Assembly (NCBI GenBank): GCA_050998755.1
Contig: JBPCPW010000085.1
Span: forward strand, 19,672-83,671
Direction of reading: 5' to 3'
DNA: 64,000 nt
Source: Candidatus Dormibacteria bacterium
GTDB lineage: Bacteria; Chloroflexota; Dormibacteria; DASZGP01
Part shown: piece after piece, positions 4,176 to 39,112 of the stretch
How positions within the stretch are numbered: position 1 is the stretch's first letter
Layout: each line of letters opens with the position of its first letter
The notes under the pieces: model-generated
Databases searched by the model: none
What the model was told of the DNA's origin: nothing
Seen by the model: the letters and a program-made list of their open reading frames with translations, nothing else
Position numbers and translations under genes: made by a program

Positions 4176-4194
4176 TAGTGGACTGTCACGGCTG

Positions 4195-4819: not shown

Positions 4820-6815
<1,996 letters not shown>

Positions 6816-6817
6816 TC

Positions 6818-7588: not shown

Positions 7589-7611
7589 CCGGGATCCACC
7601 GATCCCGGCTA
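7586..7611. terminator. Perfect 11-bp stem / 4-nt loop hairpin between convergent genes (candidate bidirectional terminator, no U-tract)
   Basis: TAGCCGGGATC-cacc-GATCCCGGCTA. It includes the SDR stop codon and ends 3 nt before the FHA gene stop. Confidence 0.5.
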
Positions 7612-7613
7612 AG

Positions 7614-12736: not shown

Positions 12737-13296
12737 CAGCAGTTCTGGTCCGGTGTCGGCACGCAGGACGGGGGAGGTTCGTACTGGTTGGCCAGCCGCG
12801 CCGCGACGCCGGTCTCCTGGAATGTCCCCAGCCTCGAGCCGTAGATCGAGGTGAGAACCTCCCATCCGGGAATCGTTGGGTGATAGGAGATGGTCACCGA
12901 TACCGCCATGTTGCAATAGAACTCGGTGTCCCCGATCTTGGGACCGGTGCTGACTCTCACCACGGTGGGCTTGGAGGCCATGCTCCGCATCATCGGCGAA
13001 TTCTGGTATTCGAGAGCGAGCACCGCCTCGGCGGAGGCCTTGGTGCCATTCTGGGCCGAGATGTCAGTTGGCGGACAGCCGCTGACCAGGTCCTTGGTGA
13101 GGTCGTGATTCTCCTTGGCGACGTGCCGCGCGGCATCGTAGGCCGCCTTCTGCTCCTGGATCCGCACCGAATAGAGAAGGCTGGCCGCGATGGTGATGAA
13201 GATGATCGCGATCAGTAGCGGCAGCACCAGCGCGAACTCGACCATCGCCTGGCCGCCGGCCTCACGCTGACCCCGCGGGCGGTGTGGGTGCGTCAT
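12736..13296 (-). CDS. TadE-like pseudopilin
   Basis: RGQREAGGQAMVEFALVLPLLIAIIFITIAASLLY. The start overlaps the flp stop (ATGA at 13293-13296). Confidence 0.8.
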   Translation of the reverse strand: MTHPHRPRGQREAGGQAMVEFALVLPLLIAIIFITIAASLLYSVRIQEQKAAYDAARHVAKENHDLTKDLVSGCPPTDISAQNGTKASAEAVLALEYQNSPMMRSMASKPTVVRVSTGPKIGDTEFYCNMAVSVTISYHPTIPGWEVLTSIYGSRLGTFQETGVAARLANQYEPPPSCVPTPDQNC

Positions 13297-18306: not shown

Positions 18307-20174
18307 GTGGCCCCGAATCCTGCGCAGGCCCAGTACATCGGCTGCTCCGAGGAGAGGGTGTGCTGACCTGCGCCGTCAGTCCAGGACAGGGTGTAGGTGG
18401 CGCTTCCGTATACCGGGTTCATGGTGCGCGTGAACCCGGGCTGCGACTGCGGGGCCGAGGCCGTCGCGCCGTGCGTTCCCGCGGTCCCCGCGCGGATCGT
18501 GTCACTGACGTGGCCGCCGGATACCCTGGCCCCGTTCGCCCAGTTTATTGCCCACGTTATGGTCACCGGGATGTCGCCGGTGGATGGGTTGCTGAAGTCG
18601 TACTGCTCGGCGATGCTCCAACCACCGTCGAAGGTACAGTCCATGCCCCGACTGGACGGGTAGGCGGTGGACTGGCTGTAGTAGGGCTGGCCGTCGCTGT
18701 AAAACCCGCAAGTCAGGGTGGGGCTGGGCGTGCTGTAGTCAGAAGTGCACTGATCGTAATAGACGCGCTGGTTGCTGATATTGAGGGGGGCGGCCGGGTA
18801 CTTGTTGGCGATGATCACGAACGTGTGGCTGGGCGAAGGTACCGGGCGGGCGGCGATCGACCGCTGGGGGCTGGGGACGGTGGGGTTGGCGCTCGGTGCG
18901 TTGGCGCTCGGGGTGATGCCGGTCGGGCCGCCGGACGTCGGGGATGGCTCCGGACTGACCGAGGGGGCGGTCTCGGGGGAAGTGCTGGGGGTGACCTGAG
19001 GCGACGGTTTCGGCGTCGGGGAGGCCAAGGCAACCGCCCCGTTGGACGCCCGCGCGGACCCGCCGCCATTTGTGCTGTTGCCACCGGCGCTGCTCTTGTT
19101 GTGGAGCGCGAGGTAGCCACCGCCCACCGCCAGGACGGCAACCAGAGCGGCGCCGGCGATCCAGGCGCTGGCCCCCATCACCCCGCCGCTGCCCGCCGCC
19201 GCACCCGCAGCGCTGGCCACCGCGGCGGTGCCCACCGCGCCGGCCGCCGCCAGGCCACCGGCGGTGGCCAGCATCGCCAGCAGTCCCATACCGGCGCCGA
19301 CGGTCGCAGCGACCTTCTTCTTCACTGAGGAACGCTTCTCCCAGTCGGCGCCGTAGGCTTCGACCGCCGCGGCCTCCAGTGCGGTCAGCATCGCTTCAGC
19401 GCTCTGCGGCCGGTCGGCGGGGTCCTTGGCCAGGCCGCCCGCAAGCAGGCCGGTCATGGCGGGGCCGAGTTTGGGGTTGACGGTGTGCGCGTCCGGTACC
19501 GGAGCTTCCCGCTGCATCCGCATCACAGCGAGTGGGTTGTCAGCCACAAACGGCGGCCGCCCGGTAAGCAGTTCGAAGAGCACCGCACCGGCGGAGTAGA
19601 GGTCTGAACGCGCGTCCAGGGTGCCGCCGCCAACCATCTCCGGGCTCATGTAGGCAGGGCTACCTGCCGGCATGCCGCCGGCGGCCCCGGGCCCCGACTG
19701 GCTCGCAGCCTGGCCGAAGTCAGCCAGCTTGCTCACTCCCTCACCGTCCAGGAGCACGTTCTCAGGCTTGATGTCGCGGTGGATCAGGCCGAGGCTGTGG
19801 GCGTGTGCCAGTCCCTGCAGGGCACCCTTGATGACGCCCAGGGATTCCTCGGGGGTCAGCTCGCCGGAGTGCTGGACAAGTCCGCGAAGCGACGCACCTT
19901 CGATCAGCTCGCTGACCAGGTAGTCGTTCTTCTCACGCTGGAAGAAGTCGAAGACCCGCACGCAGTGGTCGTTGTCGAGGCGGGCCATGATCTCTGCCTC
20001 GGCGCGGAAACGCTCGCGGAAGACAGGGTCGGCGGTGAGCTCGGTGCTCAGCTCCTTGAGCGCCACCCGGCGATCGACGAATTCCTGGTAGGCGAGGTAA
20101 ACGGTGCCTGATGCACCGCGGCCCAGGACGCCCCGGACCTGGTAGTCGCCGATGTTGCTGGGAAGCGAAGACAA
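18303..20174 (-). CDS. Transmembrane Ser/Thr protein kinase (Hanks type) with Cys-containing extracellular domain
   Basis: Kinase motifs: [31 protein letters not shown] and [10 protein letters not shown] helix AWIAGAALVAVLAVGGGYLAL is followed by a Ser/Pro-rich linker and a roughly 180-aa ectodomain. Confidence 0.95.
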   Translation of the reverse strand: MSSLPSNIGDYQVRGVLGRGASGTVYLAYQEFVDRRVALKELSTELTADPVFRERFRAEAEIMARLDNDHCVRVFDFFQREKNDYLVSELIEGASLRGLVQHSGELTPEESLGVIKGALQGLAHAHSLGLIHRDIKPENVLLDGEGVSKLADFGQAASQSGPGAAGGMPAGSPAYMSPEMVGGGTLDARSDLYSAGAVLFELLTGRPPFVADNPLAVMRMQREAPVPDAHTVNPKLGPAMTGLLAGGLAKDPADRPQSAEAMLTALEAAAVEAYGADWEKRSSVKKKVAATVGAGMGLLAMLATAGGLAAAGAVGTAAVASAAGAAAGSGGVMGASAWIAGAALVAVLAVGGGYLALHNKSSAGGNSTNGGGSARASNGAVALASPTPKPSPQVTPSTSPETAPSVSPEPSPTSGGPTGITPSANAPSANPTVPSPQRSIAARPVPSPSHTFVIIANKYPAAPLNISNQRVYYDQCTSDYSTPSPTLTCGFYSDGQPYYSQSTAYPSSRGMDCTFDGGWSIAEQYDFSNPSTGDIPVTITWAINWANGARVSGGHVSDTIRAGTAGTHGATASAPQSQPGFTRTMNPVYGSATYTLSWTDGAGQHTLSSEQPMYWACAGFGAT

Positions 20175-20233
20175 GCGCAGTTACCCCTGTTGGTGTGACG
20201 ACATAGTACGTGCAGGTGCCTGCGAACGCCGGA

Positions 20234-21460
20234 CTACTTCTTGCCCGCGGCGCCCCCGACGCCGAGGAAGGTGGCCAGGCCGGCGACCGCTTTGCCCACG
20301 CCCGAGCTCGCGACCTTGGCATAGGGCTCGTGCTTTTCGACGAAGCCTTCCATGAACTTCTTGTCGTCGGGGATGGTCGCGGCGACGGCCACGGGCATGG
20401 GCACCTCCAGCTTCTTCTTGCTGCTGCGGTTGACCACCAGGAAGCAGCGGTCCTGCACCCGCAGGTCGCGGGCCTCGATCATCGGCCCCAGCACCAGGTT
20501 GAGCATCCGTGCCACCTTGATCTGGCTGGGGATGTCATCGGGGGTGACGACCAGGATGCGGTCGGACTGGAACAGCGCCGGGGCGGTGAACATGTCGACG
20601 GTGTTGGGCAGGTCGAGCACCACCACGTCGAAGTTGTTGGCCAGGATCTGGACCAGGGCTTCCATGTGAGTGGAAGGGTCGGCGTAGTCGTCGATGGCTG
20701 CTGGGTCGTCAAGGGCGCAGAGGATGTACAGGTTGTCCTTGCGGTAGCACTTGTTGAGCAGGATCTCCTCTGAGATCACCGCGCCGGCCTCCGCCGGGAC
20801 CCGTTCCATCTTGCCCTCGGCACGCACCAGGATCTCATCAACCAGCGGTTTCAGGCCGAGGACGCTGGACCGCTTCATCTCGGTGACGTCGAAGAAGTAG
20901 GACTGGCTGCCGTTCTGCAGGTCGAGGTCGACCAGGAGAACCCGAAGTGAGGCATCCTGGGCGATCTTCGAGGCCAGCGCGGCCGCCAGCAGGCTGGTGC
21001 CGGACCCACCGCGAGGGCTGTAGCAGGCAAACACCTGGCCCTTGCCACCGGACTTCCGCGGCTGCACCGCGTCGAGCTGGCCGGGGGCGGACAGCACGGG
21101 CATGCTGGGCATCGAGGATTGGGCCGGCGGGGTCGGTGCGAGGGGCGTTTCCATCGGTGACGCCATGGGGCTACCCATAGGCCCGGGTGCGGGGAAGCCC
21201 CCGGTGCCGTCAGATGGCGCGTCTGGCATCGGACTCGGCTCAAAGGAGGGTGCCGGGAAGGCAGGCGCGTCCAGCACCGCCGGCCCGGCGCTCCCGGTGG
21301 GCTCGCCCACCAGGCGGTAGGGGAACCGGGCGCTGTGGGCCTGCGCCGACTCGAGGTTGAGGAAGGCCGCCATGACCTGGTTGCCGGCGGAGGCCTGCTC
21401 GCTCACGATGCGCGTGAGTCGGGCGCGGTTGGGTGAATAGGCGACGACCTTGTCGGTCAT
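20234..21460 (-). CDS. TadZ/CpaE-like ParA/MinD-fold protein with degenerate Walker A
   Basis: VFACYSPRGGSGTSLLAAALA...VLLVDLDLQNGS fits the CpaE/TadZ ATPase-like core. RGGSGTS replaces KGGxGK[ST]. An N-terminal domain of about 55 aa and a Pro-rich linker precede it. Confidence 0.7.
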   Translation of the reverse strand: MTDKVVAYSPNRARLTRIVSEQASAGNQVMAAFLNLESAQAHSARFPYRLVGEPTGSAGPAVLDAPAFPAPSFEPSPMPDAPSDGTGGFPAPGPMGSPMASPMETPLAPTPPAQSSMPSMPVLSAPGQLDAVQPRKSGGKGQVFACYSPRGGSGTSLLAAALASKIAQDASLRVLLVDLDLQNGSQSYFFDVTEMKRSSVLGLKPLVDEILVRAEGKMERVPAEAGAVISEEILLNKCYRKDNLYILCALDDPAAIDDYADPSTHMEALVQILANNFDVVVLDLPNTVDMFTAPALFQSDRILVVTPDDIPSQIKVARMLNLVLGPMIEARDLRVQDRCFLVVNRSSKKKLEVPMPVAVAATIPDDKKFMEGFVEKHEPYAKVASSGVGKAVAGLATFLGVGGAAGKK

Positions 21461-21482
21461 TTAGTTCCTCTCCTCTTCAGTC

Positions 21483-23255
21483 TTAGGGGCAGCGATACTG
21501 TACGCCCGCGGCGTTGGAATCGAGCGCGGTCGGCTTCAGAACCTTGAGGTGGGCGGCACCGCTGGTGCTGCCGTTGCCGGTGTAGGTGAACTGCAGCGCG
21601 ACGTCAAGCTCCTTCTGGCCGCTCTGCACGTTCTGGATGGTATCGGGGCCTGCCGCCGGCGTTCCGTCGGGCTGGATCCAGTGGTAGGTGATATCCCCGG
21701 AGCCTCCGTTGAGCAGGATCTTGCCGATGAATTTGTACTGGGCCTGGGGGCAATGGCCAACAGCGGGGTCGGCAGCGACCTGCACGCCGGTGACGACGAC
21801 CGCCGGGCCCGATGTCCGCACCACGAAGTACCAGAACGCGGCGGCGGCAAGCAGCGCGAGGATCAGCACGAGGACCAGGGCGCGCAACAGGCGCGCCGCG
21901 AACCCCCGGCCCTGTTTGGTTTTCGGCGGCGTGTAGACGGGCGCCTGGACCACCGGCATGGAGAATGCCGGTAGTGCTGGGAGCGGTGCCGCGGCCGGAT
22001 GCGCGGCCGGCGGGGGCACGAACGACGGCGCGCCCGTCGGCTGACCGGCGTGGATCGACTGGGGTGGTTGGATCACTGTCGAGTCACCCCCGACCGGGGC
22101 TCCGTGCACCATGGTCTCGTCACCCATCGGCTGGACCATTGTCGCGTCGGGAGCGGCGCCGATCGCCATGGTGTCGTCGGGCGAGGCGGACGGCCGGACC
22201 ATCGTCTCCTCGCTGCCCGCCATCAGGGCCGTCGTGTCGATTGGCGAGATAGTCCACTGCGGGGGATCCGGCGGCAGCGGGGTGGCGCCGGCGACCGAGG
22301 TGGCGGCAGGTAGTGGAGCAGTCGGTACGGTCTGGGTTGCCCCCGCTTCCTGCGCGACCGCCTGCGGCGAAGGGGGGGCAAGCGCGGCCGCGATCACCGA
22401 GAGGTCGGACTCTCCCGCCCACCCGGGCCAGGACTTCTGCGCGGCGTCGGCCAGCTTGACCCAGAAATCGCCCGCGCTCTTGGGCCTTTTCTTGGGGTCC
22501 TTGGCCAGGCCGGCGAGCAACACGTCCTCCACCTTGGATGGAAAGCCGGGGACCAACTGGCTGGGCCGCGGCGGCGGCGTGGAGATGTGGGCTTCGACGC
22601 TGGCCATGACGTTTCCAGGCACCGGCGGGAAGGGCAGCCTGCCCACCAGCATCTCGAAGCTCATGACCGCGAGGGAATACACATCGGCGCGCTGGTCGAT
22701 CTCCGCCGCGCCCGCGGCCTGCTCCGGGGACATGTACGACGGCGTGCCCAGGATGGTGCCCACCTGGGTCACAAAATTGCCCTGGCCCCCCATCATCTTG
22801 ACCAGCCCGAAGTCGCCGAGCTTGCACATGCCGGTGGTGGTCACGAAGATATTGCCGGGCTTCAGGTCACGGTGGAGGATGCCCTGCTTGGAGGCGTATT
22901 CCAGCGCCGCTGCCACTTCGCTGATAACCCGCAGGGACTGCCCGGTGGTCAGTTTGTTGCCCGTCATGACCGCCTTGAGTGAGGGGCCATGGACGTACTC
23001 CTGGACCATGTAGAGGTCGCTGCCGACGGCCTCCAGGTTGTAGATGCCGACCACGTTGGGGTGGTTCATCTTGGCCAGCGCGCGGGCCTCGCGACGGAAG
23101 CGCTCCAGGGCCTGGGGGTCGCCGTTCCACGCGCCGAGCACCTGCTTGATGGCGACAAAGCGGTTGAGGGCGGTCTGCCGGGCGAGGTACACCGAGCCCA
23201 TGGCGCCCTTGCCCACGGCCTGGATGAACTCGTACCCGGCGAGGTTGTTACTCAC
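21483..23255 (-). CDS. Transmembrane Ser/Thr protein kinase (Hanks type)
   Basis: Kinase motifs: GKGAMGSVY, VAIKQV, HRDLKPGNIFV, DFGLVK and TPSYMSPE. TM helix LVLVLILALLAAAAFWYFVV is followed by a roughly 110-aa ectodomain ending in RCP. Confidence 0.95.
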   Translation of the reverse strand: MSNNLAGYEFIQAVGKGAMGSVYLARQTALNRFVAIKQVLGAWNGDPQALERFRREARALAKMNHPNVVGIYNLEAVGSDLYMVQEYVHGPSLKAVMTGNKLTTGQSLRVISEVAAALEYASKQGILHRDLKPGNIFVTTTGMCKLGDFGLVKMMGGQGNFVTQVGTILGTPSYMSPEQAAGAAEIDQRADVYSLAVMSFEMLVGRLPFPPVPGNVMASVEAHISTPPPRPSQLVPGFPSKVEDVLLAGLAKDPKKRPKSAGDFWVKLADAAQKSWPGWAGESDLSVIAAALAPPSPQAVAQEAGATQTVPTAPLPAATSVAGATPLPPDPPQWTISPIDTTALMAGSEETMVRPSASPDDTMAIGAAPDATMVQPMGDETMVHGAPVGGDSTVIQPPQSIHAGQPTGAPSFVPPPAAHPAAAPLPALPAFSMPVVQAPVYTPPKTKQGRGFAARLLRALVLVLILALLAAAAFWYFVVRTSGPAVVVTGVQVAADPAVGHCPQAQYKFIGKILLNGGSGDITYHWIQPDGTPAAGPDTIQNVQSGQKELDVALQFTYTGNGSTSGAAHLKVLKPTALDSNAAGVQYRCP

Positions 23256-26745: not shown

Positions 26746-28389
26746 GTGGAGGGACAGATCGGCAAATACCAGGTCCGAGGAACGCTGGGCAGCGGCGCCT
26801 ACGGGACCGTCTACCTGGGATGGCAGGCCGACCTCCAGCGACCGGTGGCCATCAAGGAGCTGGGCCAGGCGATGGTGGCCGACCCCGCGTTCCTCGAGGC
26901 CTTCCGCGAGGAGGCCCGGATCATGGCGCTCCTCGACCACCCCAACTGCGTCCGGGTCTTCGACTTCATCGAGACCGGGACCCAGGCGTTCCTGGTCTCC
27001 GAGTTCGTCGATGGCGCCTCCCTGCGGGCGGTGGTGCTGTCATCCGGCTCGCTGGCGCCGCAACAATCACTGGGGGTGCTGAAGGGCTCGCTCAAGGGGC
27101 TCGGTCACGCCCACCAGCTTGGGCTGGTCCACCGCGACATCAAGCCCGAGAACATCCTGGCCGATCGAGAGGGCACCTCCAAGCTGGCTGACTTCGGCCA
27201 GTCGTACTTCGGCGGCGGCCCGGGCGCGGCGGGATCGCTGACCGGCTCACCACCTTACATGAGCCCAGAGCAGGCGCAGGGGGCACCTTGTGACGCCCGC
27301 AGCGACCTCTACTCCGCCGGGGCAATCCTCTTCGAGTTCCTCACCGGCCGCCCGCCGTTCGTGGCCGACAACCCCATGGCGATCATGCGGATGCACGTCA
27401 GCGAGCAGCCGCCCGACCCGCGGAAGTTGAATAAGAAACTGCCCAAGCAGGCCACCGCGATGATGGCGCGGGCCCTGGCCAAGGACCCCGGCAAGCGCTT
27501 CCAATCGGCAGACGAGATGCTGGCGTCGCTGGAGGACACCGCCCGCCACGGGTACGGCAAGAACTGGGAGGAATCGGCAGCGATCAAGGGGCTGGTGGCG
27601 ACCGCGGCAGCCGGCGCGGCAATGGCGGTCGGGGCGGCTGGAGTGGCCGCGGCCGGGGCCGGTGCGGCGGGCGCGTCGGGTACGGTCGCCGTGGGTAGCG
27701 CCACGGTGGGGGCGAGCGGAACGGCCGCAGCGGGCACGACCGCCGGGATTTCGGGCACAACGATTGCCGCCGGCGCCGGGGTCGCGGCGGTTGCAGGTGC
27801 CGCCGCGGTGGCCTTCGTGGTGGTCACCAACGCGCTCTTCGGCCACAACCTGGTGGTCAACGGCAACGCCGAGCAGGGCAGTGGCGCCGTCGACGCCTCG
27901 CAGGTGGTCAAGCCGGAGCATTGGACCGCGACCGGTCCCTTCACGGTGCTCAAGTACGGCTCACCCGAGTTCCCTTCGGCGACCGATTCCGGGCCCCCTG
28001 ACCGTGGCGACTACCTCTTTGCCGGCGGTCCAAACAACTCGAGGTCCAGCGCCACCCAGACCATCGACCTCTCGGGCGGGTCAGGGGGCATCGATGGCGG
28101 CGGTAAGCGGTTCAACCTGAGCGGGTATCTCGGCGGCTTTGGCGGGCAGAATGACGCGGCGACGATCTCCGTCAGGTTCCAGGATGCCGCCGGCCGCGAT
28201 ATCGGAGACGCGCACATCGGCCCCGTCACCGACCTCACCCGCAAGGGCAAAACCGGCCTGGTCAAATCCCAGACCAGTGGGGCGGTGCCCAAGGGAGCGC
28301 GCAAGGCGGTGATCACCATCGTCATGAACCGCACCGACGGCGTGTACAACGACGGCTACGCCGACGATATCTCGCTCGTAATCAGCTGA
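26746..28389 (+). CDS. Transmembrane Ser/Thr protein kinase with galactose-binding-like (jelly-roll) extracellular domain
   Basis: Kinase motifs: [32 protein letters not shown] and SPPYMSPE. An Ala/Gly-rich TM region precedes the C-terminal NGNAEQG...ATQTIDL...NLSGYLGG...YADDISLVI. Start is GTG. Confidence 0.92.
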   Translation: MEGQIGKYQVRGTLGSGAYGTVYLGWQADLQRPVAIKELGQAMVADPAFLEAFREEARIMALLDHPNCVRVFDFIETGTQAFLVSEFVDGASLRAVVLSSGSLAPQQSLGVLKGSLKGLGHAHQLGLVHRDIKPENILADREGTSKLADFGQSYFGGGPGAAGSLTGSPPYMSPEQAQGAPCDARSDLYSAGAILFEFLTGRPPFVADNPMAIMRMHVSEQPPDPRKLNKKLPKQATAMMARALAKDPGKRFQSADEMLASLEDTARHGYGKNWEESAAIKGLVATAAAGAAMAVGAAGVAAAGAGAAGASGTVAVGSATVGASGTAAAGTTAGISGTTIAAGAGVAAVAGAAAVAFVVVTNALFGHNLVVNGNAEQGSGAVDASQVVKPEHWTATGPFTVLKYGSPEFPSATDSGPPDRGDYLFAGGPNNSRSSATQTIDLSGGSGGIDGGGKRFNLSGYLGGFGGQNDAATISVRFQDAAGRDIGDAHIGPVTDLTRKGKTGLVKSQTSGAVPKGARKAVITIVMNRTDGVYNDGYADDISLVIS

Positions 28390-28421: not shown

Positions 28422-29453
28422 TCAGTGCCCGGAGGGTGTTGGCTGCGGGTTGTCCGAGGGCGAGAGCGAGCCGGGTACCGAGGGCGTGGCACCCGGCGCC
28501 GCGGACTGCCCCAGCGTGATGTTGAAGGGCAGGTCCGCCTGCTCCTCGGCGGAGTTGGCGCCGTATTTGCCCTTGACGATGAAGTCGTAGGCCCCATCGG
28601 CCGTTTTGAACACGAAATCGACAAAGTCATCGGGGGCGGTTGTGCCCTTCGGACCAATGGAACAGCAGCTGCCGCTGGTCGCGACGATGGCGGTTCCGTC
28701 GGGCAGCTTGAGGTCGGCATTGTCGCTGCTGAAGCAGCAGGTGTTGTCCTTGTTGGAGGTCAGCGAGAAATTGAGACGGAGGCTAACGTCGCCGGCCTTC
28801 GTCTCCTGGTGTTGCTTGGGGTTGTCGTAGCTCAGGTCCCCGCCGGACACCGCCAGTGAAAAGGCGTCGGGCAGGGTGATGGTGCCGTTGGCGGCTACTC
28901 TCTGGGGTGCCAGCGCGACCAATTTGCCAGCGCTACCCAATGGCACCGACGCCTGGTTGAAGTTGGCATTGCCCACCATCAGCACCGCGTTCTTGAAGCT
29001 GAACTGCTCGTCGACCTTGAAGGAGATCATTCCCGAGCTGCTCGCAAGCCCCGGCACGTCGGGGATTTTCTCGGTCGCCGAGTCATGGTCGAGGTAGCTC
29101 TGGGTGCCCGACTGCAGTACCAGGTCTTCGTTGTACGGCGTGAAGTTGTCGGGACCAAGGTTGCTCCAGGTCGCCTCGATGGTGACCTTCTCGGGAGCAG
29201 TGACGAACGTCGGCGGAGTCGGGGTGATCGCCTTGATGATCGTGGCCTGGCCCAGGGCGACCTTGAATCCTCCCCACCAGAAGGTCTTTCCCACGGTGAT
29301 GCTGCCGGCGGATCCCGGGCCGCCGCCTGACGAGGCGCTGGGCGTGACGGTGCTGCCGCCCGATTGGGTCTTGGGCTGGGCCGCTGTCCCGCCGCACGCG
29401 GCGATGAACAGTAGGGCGACGGTGGCGACGGCGGCGCGGGTGTGCATTCTCAT
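28422..29453 (-). CDS. Putative lipoprotein, two beta-rich domains
   Basis: Signal plus lipobox: VATVALLFIAACGG. No enzymatic motif recognised. Confidence 0.65.
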   Translation of the reverse strand: MRMHTRAAVATVALLFIAACGGTAAQPKTQSGGSTVTPSASSGGGPGSAGSITVGKTFWWGGFKVALGQATIIKAITPTPPTFVTAPEKVTIEATWSNLGPDNFTPYNEDLVLQSGTQSYLDHDSATEKIPDVPGLASSSGMISFKVDEQFSFKNAVLMVGNANFNQASVPLGSAGKLVALAPQRVAANGTITLPDAFSLAVSGGDLSYDNPKQHQETKAGDVSLRLNFSLTSNKDNTCCFSSDNADLKLPDGTAIVATSGSCCSIGPKGTTAPDDFVDFVFKTADGAYDFIVKGKYGANSAEEQADLPFNITLGQSAAPGATPSVPGSLSPSDNPQPTPSGH

Positions 29454-29498
29454 CCTCCGGTTGGTAGATCGGCCGCCAGTGTACGACCATCTGACTAT

Positions 29499-31064
29499 AT
29501 GACGGCACCCTTCTCGCCAAAATCGCGATTCCGGCGACCTGTATTGCTGCTGGCGCTGGTGGCCGCCCTGCTGCCGGCGCCTGCCAGCGTCGCCCCATCA
29601 TCCCCCTCGAACGTCATCACCGGGACGATGCCGCCTGACCCCGCGCGCTCGCACTCGCCGTGGTCGTGGGAACCCGGCATGGCCGCGGATCCTCGCGGGT
29701 GGACCTGGGTCGCCGGCAACCACTGCCCATTGGCGGACAACCACCTCTTCACCTCCCAGGGGCTGTGCCACGACCCCTCCAGCCAGGGCCCCCTGGCGAC
29801 CTTCGCGCCCGTATGGGTATCGAAGGACGGCGGCCGGACGTATCGCTTCGTGGCTGACCCCCTCGCCACCGTCAAGGCCGCGGCGGCGGAGAGCCCCGGG
29901 GGCGAGGACACCGACGTGGTGGTGCAACCGGCGGCCCGCGCCGGGAGGCCGCCGCTGCTCTACGTGGTGTCGGCCTGGGCGCTGAGCGCAACCCTGGCAA
30001 TCAGCGGCGACGATGGCGCCTCGTGGCGCCTGGCAGACATCACCGCGGCCCCGTTCACGGCCGCGGGCATCGATCGGCCCTGGCTCGCCGCGTCGGGGAC
30101 CTGCGACCTGTTTCTGCAATATCACCCGCTGTCGGGCTCACAGAACCTCGCCGCCGCGCCGCGAGTCGATCACTTCGACGGGTGCGCGCTGTTCGACACG
30201 GCCGCGGCGGGCGAGGTTGCCGCGACCCCGCTCAGCAGCACCTCCGTCGAGCCGCCCGCGGAGCAACTCAACGGCGTGCAGGTCATGGGCAAGCTGGTGG
30301 CCAGCGCTGGCCGAGTGTTCCTGGCGTACCTGGCATGTGACGTCGTCCCGGAGACCAATCTCAACTGCAACGGGTCAGCGGATCACCAGGGGCTGCATAT
30401 CGCCACCAGCTCCGACGCGGGCGCCAGCTGGCAGGATCAGCTCTTACCTGACGCCGCGCTGCGGGTTCCTCTCAACGACGGCGTCTGGCCCATGAGCATG
30501 GGCGCCGATGGGCCCAATCTGGCGGTCGCGGTCACCGACACGCAGCACGTCCACCTCTGGACCTCGGGCGACGCTGGGAGGTCCTGGCGGCTCCACCCCC
30601 GTCCGCTGGACGCCCCGCTGGGTTGGAACCTCGCCACGGTGCCGAGCGTCGCCGTACGCGGGGCGCTGGTTTCGGTGGCGTGGTACGGCAGCGGCCCTGC
30701 TGCTGGCGCATCGCAGGAGTGGCACCTTGTGCTGGCGCGCTCAAGCGACAGTGGCGCGGCCTTTGCGGTCACTCCCCTCGACCCGGTCCTGGCCGCCACG
30801 CCCTCGGGCACCCCCCTGGGCGACTTTCTCTACGACGACTTCGGTGCCCTGGTGACTGCCGATGGCGCAACCCTGCTGACGTACACGCAGTCCTGCTCCG
30901 GGAAGCCGGCGACGGACCCGGTGTGCCCCGGCCCTCCCACGAGCGACGCCCAGGGTACTTACGAGGTGGTCCGCTACGCCCGGATCGAGGCCGTCGCCGA
31001 TAGGCGACGTGGCAGCGTCCCGGCCGTCCCTTCGCCCCAGTATTTACCCAACACATCCCGGTAG
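29499..31064 (+). CDS. Secreted BNR/Asp-box repeat protein (sialidase-like beta-propeller)
   Basis: Five Asp-boxes: SKDGGRTY, SGDDGASW, SSDAGASW, SGDAGRSW and SSDSGAAF. Signal peptide begins at ATG 29499 (MTAPFSPKSRFRRPVLLLALVAALLPAPA). The ORF-track start 29442 overlaps the convergent lipoprotein gene. Confidence 0.8.
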   Translation: MTAPFSPKSRFRRPVLLLALVAALLPAPASVAPSSPSNVITGTMPPDPARSHSPWSWEPGMAADPRGWTWVAGNHCPLADNHLFTSQGLCHDPSSQGPLATFAPVWVSKDGGRTYRFVADPLATVKAAAAESPGGEDTDVVVQPAARAGRPPLLYVVSAWALSATLAISGDDGASWRLADITAAPFTAAGIDRPWLAASGTCDLFLQYHPLSGSQNLAAAPRVDHFDGCALFDTAAAGEVAATPLSSTSVEPPAEQLNGVQVMGKLVASAGRVFLAYLACDVVPETNLNCNGSADHQGLHIATSSDAGASWQDQLLPDAALRVPLNDGVWPMSMGADGPNLAVAVTDTQHVHLWTSGDAGRSWRLHPRPLDAPLGWNLATVPSVAVRGALVSVAWYGSGPAAGASQEWHLVLARSSDSGAAFAVTPLDPVLAATPSGTPLGDFLYDDFGALVTADGATLLTYTQSCSGKPATDPVCPGPPTSDAQGTYEVVRYARIEAVADRRRGSVPAVPSPQYLPNTSR

Positions 31065-31144: not shown

Positions 31145-31546
31145 CTACCGACCTGTTGCCGGTATCCCTGATGTGGGCGCAGGTCCAAAGACGTCCCTGA
31201 TGGCCGCGTCAAGCTCTTCGGTGCTCACCTTCGGCGGTCGGAACTTCAGGCTCCGAACGTAGGTAAGGAAGGGTTCCTTCGGGGCGTACCCGTAAGTCTG
31301 GAGGTAGTACGTAACTTCGTCGTTCCAGGTCCACGTGCCGTCGGTGCGGAAGTTCATCGGAACGACGTCCTCCCCGTCTGGGCCTGCCAGGCGGTCGAGC
31401 ATTTTATCCGTGGTGGCGGCCACGACCGCCCCCGCGTTGAGGTACCGCACCAATTTGGCGCGCTCCGCCCTGGGAATGGTCGGATGGTCAGGGTCGATTG
31501 CTGGGACGCCATCCACCAGCCTGTCCCATAGGGCTACCTGCTTCAT
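31145..31546 (-). CDS. Small cytoplasmic orphan protein (133 aa), candidate immunity/partner of upstream gene
   Basis: The ATG overlaps the upstream stop (ATGA at 31543-31546). It has no signal peptide or TM helix. No family recognised. Confidence 0.6.
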   Translation of the reverse strand: MKQVALWDRLVDGVPAIDPDHPTIPRAERAKLVRYLNAGAVVAATTDKMLDRLAGPDGEDVVPMNFRTDGTWTWNDEVTYYLQTYGYAPKEPFLTYVRSLKFRPPKVSTEELDAAIRDVFGPAPTSGIPATGR

Positions 31547-34275
31547 GGGACGGTCACCGTCGGAGGCTTGAAAACGTTCCAGAAGCTCTCCGCACCTGCT
31601 CTCATGCGGATCTCCGTCACCTTGGTGGTCACAGTGCTCCCGTCCGCCATGGTCGTTATCGAATCGACCTTTGTCTCATACCAGTATGGTGTGCGGGCGT
31701 ACGGCAGCTGACCCTTGGGCGACCAGGCAAGCGTCGCCGGGGCCTTTACCTCCACGCCCAGGATGGTCGCCAATCTCTGGGCGAAGCCGTCCACCTCGGC
31801 GCCGGTCCGGCATGAGGCGAGCAGGACGTTCTGTCCTTCCTTCCAGTCGCTCTGGCGGAGGAGCCTGGCAAAGTCAGCGGCGCTCACCGCACGACCCCCG
31901 ATGTAGACCTCCTGGCGCCCACCGTGGACGGTCGCGATGAAGGCCCCGTCCGCCGGCGCGGGAACGGTAGTGGCATTCGCAATTGCACTGTCGCTGGCGG
32001 CCCCAAAGGCGGCGCCGCCAGGCGTCTCGATCTTTGACGCGAGGATTTCGTTGAACTCCACCGCGGAGAGCCGCGGGGGCTCCCGCACCCGGTGCGCGGG
32101 AAGCAGGTCAGCGGGCCCGCCCTCGTGGGAGGGTGATCCGGGCACATCGGCGGGCGCCGCCGGCGGGGGGGGCGGCGTGGCCGCGGGGGGCGCGGCCGCA
32201 TCGGGAACCGCGGGCGTCGCTGCCGGTGGCGCAGGCTTTGCTGGCGCGGGGGCAGCCTCGGGGGGGGGTGGGGCCTCGGGCCGTGGTGCGGCCTCCGGTG
32301 GGGTTGGCGGCGGTGCTTCGGGGACCACTGGGACTTCCGGCGGCGCTTCGGGGACGGTTGGCCTCGGCGCAGTCGCGGACCCGGCGGCCGCCTCTACTGA
32401 GCCGGCGGCTGCCTCCGTTGAGGCGCCGATGACGCCCGCCGCGGGAGCCACGGCATCGGCCCCGGCGGCCGCGGCCCTGGCCGCTGCCCGCGCGGCGACC
32501 ACTCCCTTGTACCCGTCCATTAGCTGTCCCACGAGGGCGTCTTGCGCACTGAACAACACGGCCTGAATCTGGGCCTCGCCGGCCAACTCACCGATGATCC
32601 GGCTGGCCTTCTGGTCGTCGTGCCGATACACGGCGTCGTTGAACTCGCCAACATTGTCTCGCAGGGCCATGGCCTGCGCGGTGGTCATGCCCTTGAACTT
32701 TTCGAATCCCTCTCTGGACAGCATGCTGAGCGCGTCGGCCATGCCCTTCTTGGTCGCGTCCGACGCGCCTTCCCACTGATCGGGATGAGCGATGATGTCG
32801 CCCGCCTTTCGGAGTGGGTCGACGATCATCGTCTTGAGGCCGCGCTCGAACTTGTCGTCCATCGACACCAGGGTGTTGACGATGTTGTCCAGGGTCCGTC
32901 CGTTGGCGAGGTCGCGCCAGGCATTGTCGAGGAAGGCCTCCTCGGTGGTTGGTCCTCGCCTCTCCGCCTTGCCGGCATCAGTCTCGGCATAGGCCCGGTT
33001 GAACCTCGTGACCGGATCGTCGAAGGCATCCCCCGGGGAGAACCGGTTGCGGTCGGGGTCTTCGGGGTGGGCACGGCGGTAATCGCGGACCGCCTTCGCC
33101 CGAGGGTTCGACCACCGGTCAGGGTCCCAGCCCCCTCCCACGCCGCCACCGGCGACACCGCCGCCGGCGCTCGCGATCGCCCCCAGCCCGGCGCTCCCCA
33201 AGACGGGGCCTGCCCCGCAGCTCAGCCAGTCCTGCACCGTCCCGCCACATGAGGTGTAGCCGCCGTCGCACGCAAGCGCCGATATTTCGTGCCCAAGCGC
33301 CACGAGCAAGGCCGATCCGAGGGCGAGCAGCGCCAGGACAGCCGGTGCGGGGATGGGCATGGGGGTGCGCCGGCTGATCAGGAACGCTGCTCCCCCAGCA
33401 GAGAGCGCCAGCGCGATTTTCACCGCTGGGTTGGTAATTGCGACAGACCCGGCAAGCGCAACGGCGCTTCCAAGCAGCGCCATCGCGAGCGCCGCTTCTT
33501 CTGGCGGCCGCGTTCGCCCGCCGGCAATTCGTTTCACCACTGTCCGCCAGATGCTGCTGACGGCGGCGCTCGCCACCGGCCGGAGGAAGCGACCCACGAA
33601 GAAAAGTAGGCCCAGCGCGAAAGCGCCACCTAGCGCGGGCGAGACGACGACCCCCACGAGCATGGCACCGCCGAATCCCCAGAGCAGGCTCGAGCCAGTG
33701 GCGGCACGCTCGACCCTGGCCAGGGTGAGAAGCGATTTCGGGAAGCCACGGAGGTCTTTCCAGAATCGCTCCTTGCCGACCCGCAGCCGGTAGCTGATGA
33801 GTCCAGATACAACCGAGGAGAGAATGGCCCAGAAGATCGCGCCTGACACCTGGTTGTGAGTGCCGGTGGCGAGGTTGGCGCGCGGCGCGGTGCCAATGCC
33901 TTCGTAGACAAAAGCCAGCAGGACGATGTTGGCAAGCCAACCGACCACCAGGCCACCGACGGCAAACAGGATGCATCTGGGAACGTTGGCGCGGATCCAT
34001 GTGCCGGCGCCGTTGGCGACAAGGGCGACGCTGTCAATGAAGCCAAACGGCGGAGAGGATTCGTCCGGCGCGACGGCAGGAGCGGGCTCTGCGACGGAAG
34101 CCGGTGCGGCGTTGGCCACGAAATCGACCGATTCCTCTGGGGATGTACTGTCGGGCGTCGAGGCGCGCTTGGGGGCACGCTTCGGCCTGGTCGCGCCTTT
34201 GGATCCCGCGGGCTTGGGGACACGCTTAGCCCTGGTCTCGCCTTTGGATCCCGTGGGCTCGGGGCTCTCTTTCAC
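31543..34275 (-). CDS. Polytopic membrane protein with helical middle region, Pro/Ala-rich linker and C-terminal His-Gly...Ser-Cys domain (polymorphic-toxin-like architecture)
   Basis: GTG at 34275 overlaps the upstream stop (GTGA). A basic tandem-repeat N-terminus is followed by about 6-7 hydrophobic helices, then about 90 aa of PEAPPPP-type linker. The C-terminal roughly 190 aa carry ATVHGG and LLASCRTGA. Confidence 0.6.
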   Translation of the reverse strand: MKESPEPTGSKGETRAKRVPKPAGSKGATRPKRAPKRASTPDSTSPEESVDFVANAAPASVAEPAPAVAPDESSPPFGFIDSVALVANGAGTWIRANVPRCILFAVGGLVVGWLANIVLLAFVYEGIGTAPRANLATGTHNQVSGAIFWAILSSVVSGLISYRLRVGKERFWKDLRGFPKSLLTLARVERAATGSSLLWGFGGAMLVGVVVSPALGGAFALGLLFFVGRFLRPVASAAVSSIWRTVVKRIAGGRTRPPEEAALAMALLGSAVALAGSVAITNPAVKIALALSAGGAAFLISRRTPMPIPAPAVLALLALGSALLVALGHEISALACDGGYTSCGGTVQDWLSCGAGPVLGSAGLGAIASAGGGVAGGGVGGGWDPDRWSNPRAKAVRDYRRAHPEDPDRNRFSPGDAFDDPVTRFNRAYAETDAGKAERRGPTTEEAFLDNAWRDLANGRTLDNIVNTLVSMDDKFERGLKTMIVDPLRKAGDIIAHPDQWEGASDATKKGMADALSMLSREGFEKFKGMTTAQAMALRDNVGEFNDAVYRHDDQKASRIIGELAGEAQIQAVLFSAQDALVGQLMDGYKGVVAARAAARAAAAGADAVAPAAGVIGASTEAAAGSVEAAAGSATAPRPTVPEAPPEVPVVPEAPPPTPPEAAPRPEAPPPPEAAPAPAKPAPPAATPAVPDAAAPPAATPPPPPAAPADVPGSPSHEGGPADLLPAHRVREPPRLSAVEFNEILASKIETPGGAAFGAASDSAIANATTVPAPADGAFIATVHGGRQEVYIGGRAVSAADFARLLRQSDWKEGQNVLLASCRTGAEVDGFAQRLATILGVEVKAPATLAWSPKGQLPYARTPYWYETKVDSITTMADGSTVTTKVTEIRMRAGAESFWNVFKPPTVTVP
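34176..34265. repeat. Tandem 45-nt duplication (2 units, about 87 percent identical by hand alignment) encoding a basic 15-aa motif
   Basis: cacgcttcggcctggtcgcgcctttggatcccgcgggcttgggga versus cacgcttagccctggtctcgcctttggatcccgtgggctcggggc. The protein units are PTGSKGETRAKRVPK and PAGSKGATRPKRAPK. Confidence 0.85.
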
Positions 34276-37200
34276 GGCTCGAGCATCTGGAGAAGTTCGC
34301 GCCGCCGCCGCACGCACCAGACCGCGAACGAGGCGAGCAGCACGAGGATCACGACAGCGATCAGGTTGGCCGGTGTAAGCAACGCAGTCAGCAGCGCCGT
34401 CGTGCCCGGGTCACGGGTACCGGCGAGCAGCCGGGCGGTGTCGGGAGCCTTGATCACCGCGGGACGGACCGCGATCGTCGCGGTGGCCGGCACGTAACCC
34501 AGCTGCGAAACCGTCACCTTCAGCGGAGCTGTGGTGAGGGGCGCGACCTTCAGCCTGACGGTCCCATCTGGTCCCGTCCAGGCGTGGAAATCGTTGGCGG
34601 CGTTGACAAGCTGGACCCGGGCACCGGCGATAAGGGCACCGTAGTCGTCCACCACGGTCACCTTGGGGGTCTCGGTGCTGAGCGCAGTGAGCCTCTGCGG
34701 CAGACCCTGGACATGAAGCCGCGGGCCGGCGGCTGCCTTCACCGTCCTGCCGCCGACCCGCACGGTCTGGTCTGTCGTTCCGTCGGCCGCGAGCTGGATG
34801 ACGGCGGTGTCCCCCGAGGTTGCACTGAAGGCAAAGGAGGTGAAGGGAGTGCTCCCCGCGCCTGAGGCGATCTCCACGGCGGCCGGACCTGAGGACGTGC
34901 CGGTCAGCGTGATGTCGTAGTCACCAGGCGGGACCAGGATCAGATCGGCGTCGGCGAGCGCCGACTCGGCCGCGACCGGAAGGCCAGGCGCACTCACCGA
35001 GCTCGCCAGCTTGAACTGGGCACGGGCGATGATCTCGGCACCTCCGATCTCGTTTATGGCGCGCGTGCCGCTGCTCCCGCTATCCAACAGGAACCCGACG
35101 CGGCTACCGGCCGGCGCCCCGGTGGTCAGGGTAGCCGCTCGCTGAACGACGGTTGCGGCAACCGCGCCGCGCACTCTTATCAGCGGCCGCGCATTCAGAC
35201 TCGCACCGAGGGCCTTGTCCCGGGGGGTCCTTCTCTGAACCGACCGGGGGCTGGGGTAGCCGAGGTAGAGCGAGCTGGATGCGTCGCTCTTGTCGAGCAT
35301 CCCGACGCTGGTTGTCCTGCCCGCGGCCCAGGTCGTGAGCGGGATGAGTTTCGCGGGAATGATCCGCTTGGACGCAGGGTCTTTGACCAGCTTGCTGACC
35401 TCATCCATGTCGATCACCTGCGCCTGGGTGATCGCCGGGCTCGTGGGCGACGTCTTCTTTCCGGCGATGTAAGCGGCAAGGGAACGTGCGTCTTTCGCGT
35501 CGACGTTCTTCGGGTAGGCAACCACCCCGCCCTTGCCGTCCGCGGTCCTGAGGGGAACGAAATCGGCATTCCCAGTGTCGCTAAGTGCGAGCAGGGAATT
35601 GAGCACCGTGGCCTGCAGGTCGGCAGCCGTGGAGGACGGCGCCGGGCGCGCGGCCAGCCTGCCGCGCACTCCCCTGTCCAGGATGTCACCGAGGTCGGGC
35701 GGGAGACTCGGCCCGCCGCCGCCCGCCGCCGGGGGCTCGGCGGGAAGGTCGGCCTGCTCGCTGCGCACGGTCGAAAGCTGCGGGGCCGTATCGCCGTTGT
35801 CGATGACCGCCTTTACCGTCAGTGTCCCTGCCTGCGAACCTATGCCTGTCCACGCGTCGATCACGACCAGGCCCTGACCGTCGGTGATTCCGGTGAAGGT
35901 GCCCGGCGGCAGGCCTTCGACATCAGGTCCGGGGTCCGCGGTTGGATACAACAGGTGGCCCTCGGGATCACCAAGCACCACGCGCCCCACTGGCACTTCG
36001 GCGGTGAACTGGACCTTGGCCCCTGCCACCGCGTCACCCAGCCCGTCCGTTACCGCGGCGGTTATCTCGTGCACGTTGCGGCCGGGGATGAGGTTGGTCG
36101 GATCCTTCTTGAGCTCGAGGTTGAACTCGTTGTTGAAGACGAAGTCGACGTTGTCTCGATCCCCGATCGCGTCCAGGACGCATTGGGCCGTGTGCGATGC
36201 CACCCCGCCGACCACGCACTGATACGGCGCGCCCGCAATCGATTCGCCCGCTCGCAGCGGCGGCGGAGTCAGTCCCTCGCCGACGTATGCCTCCTCCGGC
36301 ACGGTGATGCGGTACTTGCCCTTGGCGTCGGTGACCGCCTCGCGATTGGTGCCCTGCTTCCCGGTGAAGGCGATGTGCACCCCGGCGAGGGGCTTGTCGC
36401 CAGGATGTGTCACCTTGCGCGTGACCTGGCCGGAGAAGTTGTAGCCGCCCTCTGCGAAATTCTGAGTCGTGTACCCGTCGATAGTGAGCTTTGGCGCATC
36501 GGGGGTGAACCTGTCAGGCGGCCCCTGGTTGAGGCGATTGTCCTTGAAGAAACAGGCACAGACGGTGTACGTGCCAGCGTCAACGAACGCGCTGTAGTAG
36601 CCGGTTGAATCCGTAAGGGCGACCGATCGCTTGTTGTCCTCGGACCGGATCTGGATATATACGCCCGCGACCGGCGTCTTCCCATCCTTCTGGGTCACGA
36701 CACCGTCCAGGAAGCCGACGTTGTAAGGAAGGATCGCGTAGTAATCGCTGGCGACCGTTGAAAGGCAGCCGGCGAACTCGGCGTGGCCGGACTGCGCCGC
36801 GGCGACTGATCCGCAGAACCCGGTGATGCCGATGGACAGCGTGGTCCATCCCCCGGTGGCCCCCGTCGCCTCGGCGCTGCAGGTGTTGGTGCCTCCAATC
36901 TTTCCCGGGGCGATATCCGCCGCGGGTGAGAAATGGCTGGTGCACTTGCCAAAGCTCATCTGCCAGGCGGCCGCCCCGCTATAGATGTCCCCGCCGACCT
37001 TCGGGCTGAACGTTGCTGTGATCTTGGGACAATTACCCGGGCTGGTCCCCGGCTTGCACGCCTGGACTACGTGCGGCGACACGCTCAGGGTGCCAAGGCG
37101 TGTGTCCTGGACGCACTTCTGACCAGGGTCCGGCATCGGGTCACGACAGTCGCCTGTGGGACTGGGACCCGGCCGCGGACCCAATCCCTTTGCCTGCGGC

Positions 37201-37322
37201 AGCTCGGGTCGGGTACGCGCCGCTACGGGCGCAGCGACGACTGGCTGGGCGGCGATCAGGACGAGGATGGCGACCAGCACTCGGAGCACCGTCGCAGCGA
37301 GACCTCGGTGGCGGCGCTTCAC
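34272..37322 (-). CDS. Large surface protein with carboxypeptidase-regulatory-like and Ig-like beta-sandwich domains and a C-terminal TM anchor
   Basis: GTG 37322 has GGAGAGGAG upstream. Signal peptide: LAATVLRVLVAILVLIAAQPVVA. Domain-like segments are GKTPVAGVYIQIRSEDNKRSVALTDSTGYYSAFVDAGTYTV and PLAGVHIAFTG...TDAKGKYRITV. C-terminus: LIAVVILVLLASFAVWCVRRRR. Confidence 0.7.
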   Translation of the reverse strand: MKRRHRGLAATVLRVLVAILVLIAAQPVVAAPVAARTRPELPQAKGLGPRPGPSPTGDCRDPMPDPGQKCVQDTRLGTLSVSPHVVQACKPGTSPGNCPKITATFSPKVGGDIYSGAAAWQMSFGKCTSHFSPAADIAPGKIGGTNTCSAEATGATGGWTTLSIGITGFCGSVAAAQSGHAEFAGCLSTVASDYYAILPYNVGFLDGVVTQKDGKTPVAGVYIQIRSEDNKRSVALTDSTGYYSAFVDAGTYTVCACFFKDNRLNQGPPDRFTPDAPKLTIDGYTTQNFAEGGYNFSGQVTRKVTHPGDKPLAGVHIAFTGKQGTNREAVTDAKGKYRITVPEEAYVGEGLTPPPLRAGESIAGAPYQCVVGGVASHTAQCVLDAIGDRDNVDFVFNNEFNLELKKDPTNLIPGRNVHEITAAVTDGLGDAVAGAKVQFTAEVPVGRVVLGDPEGHLLYPTADPGPDVEGLPPGTFTGITDGQGLVVIDAWTGIGSQAGTLTVKAVIDNGDTAPQLSTVRSEQADLPAEPPAAGGGGPSLPPDLGDILDRGVRGRLAARPAPSSTAADLQATVLNSLLALSDTGNADFVPLRTADGKGGVVAYPKNVDAKDARSLAAYIAGKKTSPTSPAITQAQVIDMDEVSKLVKDPASKRIIPAKLIPLTTWAAGRTTSVGMLDKSDASSSLYLGYPSPRSVQRRTPRDKALGASLNARPLIRVRGAVAATVVQRAATLTTGAPAGSRVGFLLDSGSSGTRAINEIGGAEIIARAQFKLASSVSAPGLPVAAESALADADLILVPPGDYDITLTGTSSGPAAVEIASGAGSTPFTSFAFSATSGDTAVIQLAADGTTDQTVRVGGRTVKAAAGPRLHVQGLPQRLTALSTETPKVTVVDDYGALIAGARVQLVNAANDFHAWTGPDGTVRLKVAPLTTAPLKVTVSQLGYVPATATIAVRPAVIKAPDTARLLAGTRDPGTTALLTALLTPANLIAVVILVLLASFAVWCVRRRRELLQMLEP

Positions 37323-37434: not shown

Positions 37435-37469
37435 AAAAAAAGAGCCGCCTGGGTTTCCCCGGACGGCCC
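37435..37469 (-). terminator. Intrinsic terminator of groEL (GC-rich hairpin followed by a U7 tract on the minus strand)
   Basis: The minus strand reads GGGCCGTCCGGGG-AAA-CCCAGGCGGCTC-TTTTTTT and begins 32 nt after the groEL stop. Confidence 0.7.
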
Positions 37470-37501
37470 TTGATGGTCCCTGTGTCTTCTGAGGCTTAGG
37501 C

Positions 37502-39112
<1,611 letters not shown>

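Follow-up and report, generated by a model that had tools for sequence, protein, structure and literature searches.

A probable polymorphic toxin–immunity locus with a membrane-embedded carrier and a caspase-like C-terminal domain beside groEL of a Candidatus Dormibacteria bacterium

Among the protein weapons with which bacteria compete, polymorphic toxins are the principal ones and, to our knowledge, the delivery routes known in Gram-positive or actinobacterial cells are few: type VII secretion (T7SS), Sec-exported Rhs proteins, PrsW proteins and umbrella particles. Can a polytopic membrane protein of another kind carry such a toxin? The question is raised by three adjacent minus-strand genes, here called A, B and C, in a 64,000-nt stretch of DNA (the window) from a Candidatus Dormibacteria bacterium (GenBank assembly GCA_050998755.1, contig JBPCPW010000085.1, positions 19,672 to 83,671). 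An initial annotation of the window had noted that the three genes have the layout of a polymorphic toxin with its immunity gene. Our analysis indicates that the module is probably a polymorphic toxin–immunity locus on a previously undescribed membrane-embedded carrier, with a caspase-like toxin domain at the end of B, C as immunity protein and A as a helper.

The genes were taken from the minus-strand open reading frame (ORF) list of the window (Table 1). ORF coordinates and junction sequences confirmed the coupling of the three genes that had been described at the outset. The TGA stop codon of A overlaps the GTG start codon of B in the sequence GTGA (34272–34275, ccGTGAaag), and the TGA stop codon of B overlaps the ATG start codon of C in the sequence ATGA (31543–31546, ccATGAag). 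The GTGA junction is kept in a homologous locus, L001. The parts of B that had been distinguished earlier, namely a basic repeat N-terminus, a membrane domain, a helical part, a Pro/Ala linker and a C-terminal domain of ≈ 190 aa, are all seen in the sequence and its hydropathy.

When 5.8 billion protein clusters were searched with B, only three relatives (P0001–P0003) were returned. Four further loci, in Frankiaceae, Actinomycetes and a Chloroflexota-labelled bin, came to light when the aligned membrane module was used to scan 185,579 species genomes. In the following, P0001–P0003 denote protein relatives of B and L001–L007 the B-family loci. The membrane module gave nothing by tblastn against 72,556 plasmids or in a scan of viral contigs. 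With about eight loci in all collections, the module appears to be rare and not evidently plasmid- or phage-borne. The relatives share residues ∼ 79–441 of B or more at 34–49% identity. Since the L006 protein can be aligned with window B as far as residue 574, the helical region was counted as belonging to the constant part.

Behind this constant front, four C-terminal types were found in the B family: the caspase-like domain of the window, a PI3_PI4_kinase-like domain, a kinase-like domain followed by an ADP-ribosyltransferase domain, and a region of ∼ 400 aa common to L006 and L007 to which no identity was assigned. The PI3_PI4_kinase-like assignment exceeded the Pfam cut-off (27.1 bits) in P0003 (36.2 bits) and L005 (52.6 bits), which carry the motifs GNxDRHxxN and IDHG; P0001 scored below it (16 bits) and aligns with P0003/L004 (E 1e-27) and L005 (E 3e-32). 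P0002 has the kinase-like domain plus an ADPrib_exo_Tox match of 29.3 bits (cut-off 23.4). The giant protein P0006 contains four copies of the same PI3/PI4-kinase-like domain, and P0033 contains one alongside caspase-like domains.

Downstream of B, a kinase-type C-terminus is always followed by a coupled ORF of 88–105 aa. These ORFs form one family (pairwise E 4e-9 to 3e-20) with no resemblance to C and no Pfam match for the L001, L003 and L004 copies scanned; the family is probably the immunity partner of the kinase-like toxin domain. The clearest pair of loci is L003 and L001, whose B proteins (1835–5918 and 10001–13065 regions, respectively) are 88% identical over 885 residues. Compared with L001, L003 has one additional C-terminal ADP-ribosyltransferase domain and exactly one additional ORF, of 83 aa (5353–5604), placed between B and the kinase-type partner gene. 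Judged from these alignments, the two loci differ in the way in which polymorphic-toxin cassettes behave. The outcome of the homologue survey that had been suggested for this locus was therefore positive: the N-terminal part is constant among seven homologues with four C-terminal types, and C-termini and downstream ORFs vary together, L006 and L007 excepted.

Two features next to B-family modules were also seen. L001 carries a type I restriction–modification system (HsdM/S/R, 17308–22769) 4.5 kb downstream of the module, and L006 carries, directly downstream, a pair of ORFs that are MazF/PemK-like by eye (10884–11473, minus strand). B-family loci may lie in variable, conflict-rich regions.

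C itself gave no match to Pfam, NCBIfam or PDB sequences. A word-indexed search returned only C or near-identical copies, and tblastn was required to find the family. Homologues were found in 16 plasmid records (Streptomyces, Embleya and Rhodococcus; E values down to 4e-11), as genes for “hypothetical proteins” of ∼ 135 aa, and a metagenome scan with a two-sequence C alignment gave 58 further loci, so the 133-aa protein is not the orphan that it had been taken for. An alignment of eight members contains invariant TDG.W.W and YY...Y-type motifs. None of the eight matched a Pfam family at E ≤ 1 or the sequences of Imm36 (DUF600) and Imm57, and a profile search of the PDB gave nothing significant. 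An AlphaFold2 (AF2) model of C from the single sequence (pLDDT 38) was unusable.

The neighbours of C homologues were informative. L009, the Rhodococcus pseudokoreensis plasmid NZ_CP070617.1, has genes for an FtsK/SpoIIIE ATPase, an 86-aa helical protein and a 272-aa WXG-like protein, of which the C-terminal half is the caspase-like domain (hidden Markov model (HMM) E 4e-39); a 134-aa C homologue (E 5e-10) follows directly. The gene upstream of the C homologue in L073 encodes an Rhs protein of the canonical type, with ten RHS_repeat stretches (287.8 bits), DUF6531 and the RHS core. Beyond its ...DPLGL motif, the C-terminus of this protein is the caspase-like domain (E 1e-34), which the C homologue directly follows. 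The cassette is thus shared with two other kinds of trafficking domain, WXG-like and RHS. Of 19 metagenome C-family loci with 4 kb of upstream sequence, seven encode the caspase-like domain there, within a large same-strand ORF. The immunity-like behaviour of the C family is strong, and so is its specific pairing with caspase-like domains that stand C-terminal-most on carriers of three unrelated kinds (B, WXG-like and Rhs). We predict that C is the immunity protein that neutralizes the toxin domain of B.

C-like genes occur in other settings as well. In L058, one stands behind a gene for a protein that ends in an ADP-ribosyltransferase domain. Tandem C-like genes and fusions were found in L039 (3107–6065), L024 (1461–3587), L018, L054 and L064; L039, where one ORF holds three C copies and the ORF before it ends in another, resembles poly-immunity arrays. 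Several plasmid copies are solitary, and some lie beside transposase genes. Large ORFs without a Pfam match precede the C-family genes in L051 (1–3591) and L033 (1–3465), and in the former an OTU-like motif (DGNCFY...H) can be made out by eye close to the C-terminus; these ORFs may be further toxin types, served by the C family or by its neighbours.

The C-terminal domain of B (residues 719–910) had been regarded as not assignable to a family. A word-indexed search indeed found near-identical copies only, and an exhaustive HMMER search was required. Run against 1.84 billion representative proteins, it gave 527 relatives at E ≤ 1e-3, 84 of them at E ≤ 1e-10; most of the relatives are in multi-toxin proteins of the WXG100 or Rhs type from actinobacteria. 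A local HMM detected 245 copies of the domain among the best 150 of the 527 relatives. The domain occurs in up to nine repeats in proteins of 3–7 thousand residues, is paired with other domains, or forms the C-terminal half of ∼ 265-aa proteins with a helical-hairpin-like N-terminal 100 residues. Pfam domains that co-occur with it in a sample of relatives were WXG100_2, TcdA/TcdB glycosyltransferase, Scabin-like, ADPrib_exo_Tox/ART, RelA_SpoT, APH and GT4-conflict; in one sampled relative, four PI3_PI4_kinase-like domains alternate with the caspase-like domain. Several relatives exceed the DUF4347 cut-off of 24.6 bits (P0035, 25.1; P0006, 56.9; P0008, 56.8; P0009, 49.1 bits).

In an alignment of 50 copies, His66-Gly67 and Cys104-x-Thr106-Gly107 (corresponding to His784 and Cys822 of B) were at least 90% conserved, and in two degenerate copies, inspected by eye, both the His and the Cys are missing. 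This alignment yielded a confident AF2 model (pLDDT 87.6, pTM 0.78), which was compared with the PDB using Foldseek. The best match was the cysteine protease domain (CPD) of Vibrio cholerae MARTX (3gcd_A; probability 0.98, E 8.6e-3), followed by legumain, the TcdB CPD (3pee_B) and caspases; the top matches all belong to clan CD. Structural comparison of a predicted model, which had been recommended earlier, thus led to a consistent fold at weak scores. Zhang et al. (2012; PMC3482391) described caspase-like His/Cys domains in actinobacterial polymorphic toxins that act as releasing peptidases when internal, often repeated and sometimes degenerate, and as toxins (“Tox-Caspase”) when C-terminal-most. 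Because domain co-occurrence, the His/Cys pair and the weak clan CD matches all agree with this pattern, the domain is placed in the Tox-Caspase kind, with fold evidence that is weak but consistent; B 719–910 would accordingly have peptidase activity. The initial statement that none of the three proteins can be placed thus no longer holds for the toxin domain.

Pfam, NCBIfam and PDB sequence searches with B gave no match, and nothing was found at E ≤ 1 when the N-terminal module of B and of P0001–P0003 was searched against Pfam and NCBIfam. The observation that the delivery part is an integral membrane domain lacking a T7 or Rhs marker agrees with the Pfam result for B. The first 100 residues of B contain 14 Lys or Arg, and the basic N-terminal repeats are present in the L007 protein too. 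The hydrophobic segments fall between residues 101 and 330. Lys and Arg are abundant in the loops at 163–196 (9) and 229–261 (7), with two at 301–309, as against one at 124–142 and none in the Cys loop at 331–356. This charge pattern fits a topology with the N-terminus inside, seven transmembrane segments and an extracytoplasmic Cys loop. Invariant in seven sequences are N116 in the first transmembrane segment, a cytoplasmic VG..RFW.D.R..P loop, LRP, the A.DGG...CG.........C loop with its two cysteines, and the glycines of the Gly-rich stretch that follows. No invariant Glu-Glu or His motif was found in the membrane module across the seven homologues.

For A, Pfam matches and hydropathy agree with the surface protein that had been proposed, with carboxypeptidase-regulatory-like and Ig-like domains and a C-terminal anchor. 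CarboxypepD_reg matched in three stretches (72.2 bits) and CarbopepD_reg_2 with 45.1 bits; Big_1, at 32.8 bits, was slightly under its cut-off of 34.9. Because these matches occur together with a signal-like hydrophobic segment at residues 7–25 and a transmembrane segment at residues 986–1004 (∼ 34311–34367), A is predicted to be an exported, C-terminally anchored surface protein. In L001/L002, a gene upstream of B encodes a homologue that is 39% identical to A; L003 has a partial homologue. A is most likely an accessory or partner protein that helps in cell-surface display or in contact with the target cell.

These data suggest the following mechanism. B would be made as an integral membrane protein with its basic tail in the cytoplasm. 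The polytopic module, with seven or possibly eight transmembrane segments and a disulfide-type extracytoplasmic loop, would anchor B and probably present or export the remainder, that is, the helical region, a Pro/Ala linker of ∼ 115 residues able to span the cell wall, and the caspase-like peptidase. If the chain stays outside after the Cys loop, all three would be displayed on the surface. As the toxic cargo, the peptidase would cleave proteins of a neighbouring cell after contact or release, and it may also free itself by self-cleavage. C, made together with B through the ATGA overlap, would bind the peptidase and block it in the cytoplasm of the producing cell and of its siblings. A, from the translationally coupled gene upstream, would be a membrane-anchored surface accessory of beta-sandwich type, most likely acting in display or target-cell contact. 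Both the toxicity of B and its neutralization by C are predictions from the sequence comparisons.

Several observations weigh against this interpretation. As to the toxin domain, window B has no match to Pfam DUF4347, which only its relatives reach, and no structural match was obtained at E ≤ 1e-3 or with a TM-score above 0.34. As to the pairing, 37 of the 45 C-family loci with at least 600 bp of upstream sequence have no detectable caspase-like domain nearby, so C may serve other partners or stand alone; the B homologues of L006 and L007 lack a small coupled ORF; and the sample is small (about seven independent B loci). In four of the B loci (L004, L005, L006 and L007), the CarboxypepD_reg surface protein is replaced by an unrelated polytopic membrane protein of 328–361 aa, and A is therefore dispensable to the B family. 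As to delivery, Pfam detects no known secretion marker in B, and topology and export route are ambiguous, which makes the outside location of its C-terminal half a presumption. The Gly-rich segment at residues 357–383, present in all seven homologues and Phe-rich in L006, has a mean Kyte–Doolittle value of ∼ 1.3 (hand estimate) and could be an eighth transmembrane segment. If it spans the membrane, the C-terminal half is cytoplasmic, and one would need either export through a conduit of the kind suggested for PrsW toxins or a function inside the cell.

Such an intracellular function would be that of a membrane-anchored toxin–antitoxin or abortive-infection system, in which B has eight transmembrane segments, the effector is cytoplasmic, C is an antitoxin until a trigger acts, A is perhaps a sensor, and the producer's own proteins are attacked. 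The Gly-rich segment after the Cys loop is consistent with this, as are the eight Lys or Arg among the next 30 residues and the tight coupling to B of a C protein that has no signal peptide. Moreover, ADP-ribosyltransferase, kinase and RelA_SpoT effectors are also used by toxin–antitoxin and defence systems, and two of the modules lie near a type I restriction–modification system (L001) or beside a MazF-like pair (L006). However, the toxin–partner cassette is found on Rhs and on WXG/T7SS-type export scaffolds, the A product is predicted to be exported, and two invariant Cys in a loop devoid of Lys and Arg, together with a long Pro/Ala linker, suit a wall-spanning extracytoplasmic protein. Five proteins (A, B, C, the polytopic alternative to A and the kinase-type partner) gave no match in PADLOC at E ≤ 0.1, because of which the locus was not classed as a known anti-phage defence system. 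We consider an intracellular system rather unlikely.

The caspase-like domain might also process B or A, independently of sortase as in the clostripain type, within a non-toxic surface-protein maturation unit in which C is a chaperone or a regulator. A releasing role has been assigned to most caspase-like peptidase domains of polymorphic toxins (PMC3482391), the giant relatives have internal, repeated copies of the domain beside other toxin domains, and a large surface protein, A, is co-translated with B. A processing-only function is nevertheless disfavoured, because the domain of B is C-terminal-most with a dedicated partner gene and because sister loci hold kinase-like and ADP-ribosyltransferase domains in the same slot, each with a partner; besides, A is absent from four B loci. 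This explanation appears quite unlikely to us. Chance adjacency of three functionally unlinked genes is very improbable: 4-base overlaps are common in high-GC genomes, yet gene order, the GTGA junction and downstream coupling are kept in L001/L002 and L003, and the coupling of B to a small ORF in L004 and L005. The polymorphic toxin–immunity layout first proposed for the locus is supported by the co-variation in the B family and by the sharing of the cassette with L009 and L073, and it remains the explanation that we prefer. A further step, that the polytopic module of B and its coupled partner (A or the 330–360-aa polytopic protein) form a new self-contained display or export route in monoderm Actinobacteria, is a tentative proposal; on this view, which is equally doubtful, the toxin would be threaded or presented through membrane and wall without the aid of T7SS, Rhs shells or PrsW proteolysis.

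The module adjoins the terminator of groEL (37502–39112), as the initial annotation had stated. RNA folding revealed a GC-rich hairpin between groEL and gene A, GGGCCGUCC...GGCGGCUC followed by U7, ∼ 30 nt past the groEL stop codon; a simple consensus scan had overlooked it. On the C side lie, as judged by eye, genes for a Ser/Thr protein kinase with an Ala/Gly-rich transmembrane region and an extra C-terminal domain (26746–28389, plus strand), a lipoprotein-like 343-aa protein (28422–29453, minus strand) and a 540-aa secreted protein (29442–31064, plus strand), none of which is conserved beside B homologues elsewhere. L077, a Joint Genome Institute (JGI) contig that is 99.8% identical, has a G-to-T change at its position 520 (∼ 31612 of the window, minus strand), by which a Glu codon becomes TAG; the toxin domain of B loses its final 23 residues and the ATGA overlap with gene C is broken. 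Natural inactivation or an error of sequencing explains this stop codon. The polytopic proteins that replace A are 39–55% identical to one another and have a C-terminal beta-rich domain of ∼ 90 aa. The copies scanned (L004, L005 and L006) gave no Pfam match. Across the four loci, the position of the gene varies: upstream and coupled, downstream, or convergent.

Table 1. Positions of the module, its parts and the partner genes of homologous loci (window coordinates unless a locus is named)
Feature	Position	Strand	Description
Gene A	34272–37322	−	1016 aa from the GTG chosen in the initial annotation; longest ORF reaches 37436
Parts of gene A			Signal-like N-terminus, Cys-rich region, CarboxypepD_reg and Ig-like beta-sandwich domains, transmembrane anchor, short basic tail
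Gene B	31543–34275	−	910 aa; longest ORF reaches 34317; predicted precursor of carrier module and toxin domain
B residues 1–90	34006–34275	−	Lys/Arg-rich repeated N-terminal tail, predicted cytoplasmic
B residues 91–388	33112–34005	−	Conserved polytopic membrane module, seven predicted transmembrane segments
B Cys loop, residues 331–356	∼ 33208–33285	−	Predicted extracytoplasmic DGG..CG...C loop
B residues 357–383	within membrane module	−	Gly-rich hydrophobic segment, could be transmembrane segment 8
B residues 389–600	32476–33111	−	Helical region, partly conserved (BLAST)
B residues 601–718	32122–32475	−	Low-complexity linker, Ala- then Pro/Ala-rich
B residues 719–910	31546–32121	−	C-terminal caspase-like (clan CD, DUF4347-related) cysteine peptidase, predicted toxin
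Putative catalytic pair	His784 31924–31926; Cys822 31810–31812	−	From alignment
Gene C	31145–31546	−	133 aa, cytoplasmic, predicted cognate immunity protein
Intrinsic terminator of upstream groEL	∼ 37435–37471	−	GC hairpin and U7 by RNA folding; 5′ boundary of the module
Alternative partner	L004 236–1276; L005 4289–5302; L006 ∼ 6760–7845; L007 10684–11670	L007 −	Polytopic protein in place of A
88–105-aa partner family	L001 12769–13065; L003 5601–5918; L004 3600–3893; L005 4053–4319		After kinase-type C-terminus

How does the locus compare with known systems? The B carrier module is not described in the literature that was searched, which concerned DUF4347, Tox-Caspase and actinobacterial polymorphic toxins with a membrane anchor. 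On present sequence evidence, the toxin domain is of a known kind, the C family has neither a Pfam model nor a description that we could find, and the carrier has no Pfam or NCBIfam model. In layout, B is closest to the PrsW-type toxins (PMC3482391), which likewise have a polytopic N-terminus (about eight transmembrane segments), a linker, variable C-terminal toxins and a downstream immunity gene and are found mainly in Gram-positive bacteria. In contrast to these, B has no PrsW similarity (no Pfam match at E ≤ 1) and none of the Glu-Glu/His motifs. It has instead a two-Cys loop, a Gly-rich segment, a helical region, a ∼ 115-residue Pro/Ala linker and a coupled partner protein. Membership of the membrane module in the PrsW/CPBP family was rejected because there was neither a family match nor a catalytic motif.

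The C-terminal domain shares with the Tox-Caspase, DUF4347 and C80 (MARTX, TcdA/TcdB) peptidases a predicted alpha/beta organization and a His followed ∼ 38–50 residues later by a Cys. Domains of the Tox-Caspase kind are internal (repeated, sometimes degenerate) or C-terminal-most in actinobacterial WXG/T7SS and Rhs proteins (PMC3482391). The window copy differs in being too divergent for Pfam DUF4347 or Peptidase_C80 and in its weak structural scores, and C does not belong to Imm36 or Imm57, the immunity families listed for Tox-Caspase in PMC3482391. The PI3/PI4-kinase-like toxin domain of the sister loci is absent from that 2012 catalogue. Likely functions are thereby suggested for two families without a Pfam model, the 133-aa “TDG.W.W” family as immunity to caspase-like toxins and the 88–105-aa family as partner of a kinase-like toxin.

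With Rhs and WXG100/LXG toxins, B has in common the toxin cassette and the immunity family (L073 and L009), whereas Pfam detects no WXG100/LXG domain in B and no RHS/YD repeats or DPxGL core in A or B. A similar order of parts is reportedly found in CpnT–IFT of Mycobacterium tuberculosis, with a membrane-associated N-terminus, a Pro-rich linker, a C-terminal toxin and a small downstream immunity gene. CpnT is said to be a channel protein of the outer membrane that depends on ESX and has an NAD+ glycohydrolase as its toxin; B, in contrast, is predicted to be a polytopic alpha-helical inner-membrane protein, and no sequence relationship between the two was found. To these systems the locus would add a rare carrier that has no Pfam or NCBIfam model, a polytopic module with a coupled partner, which appears to swap toxin cassettes with T7SS and Rhs proteins.

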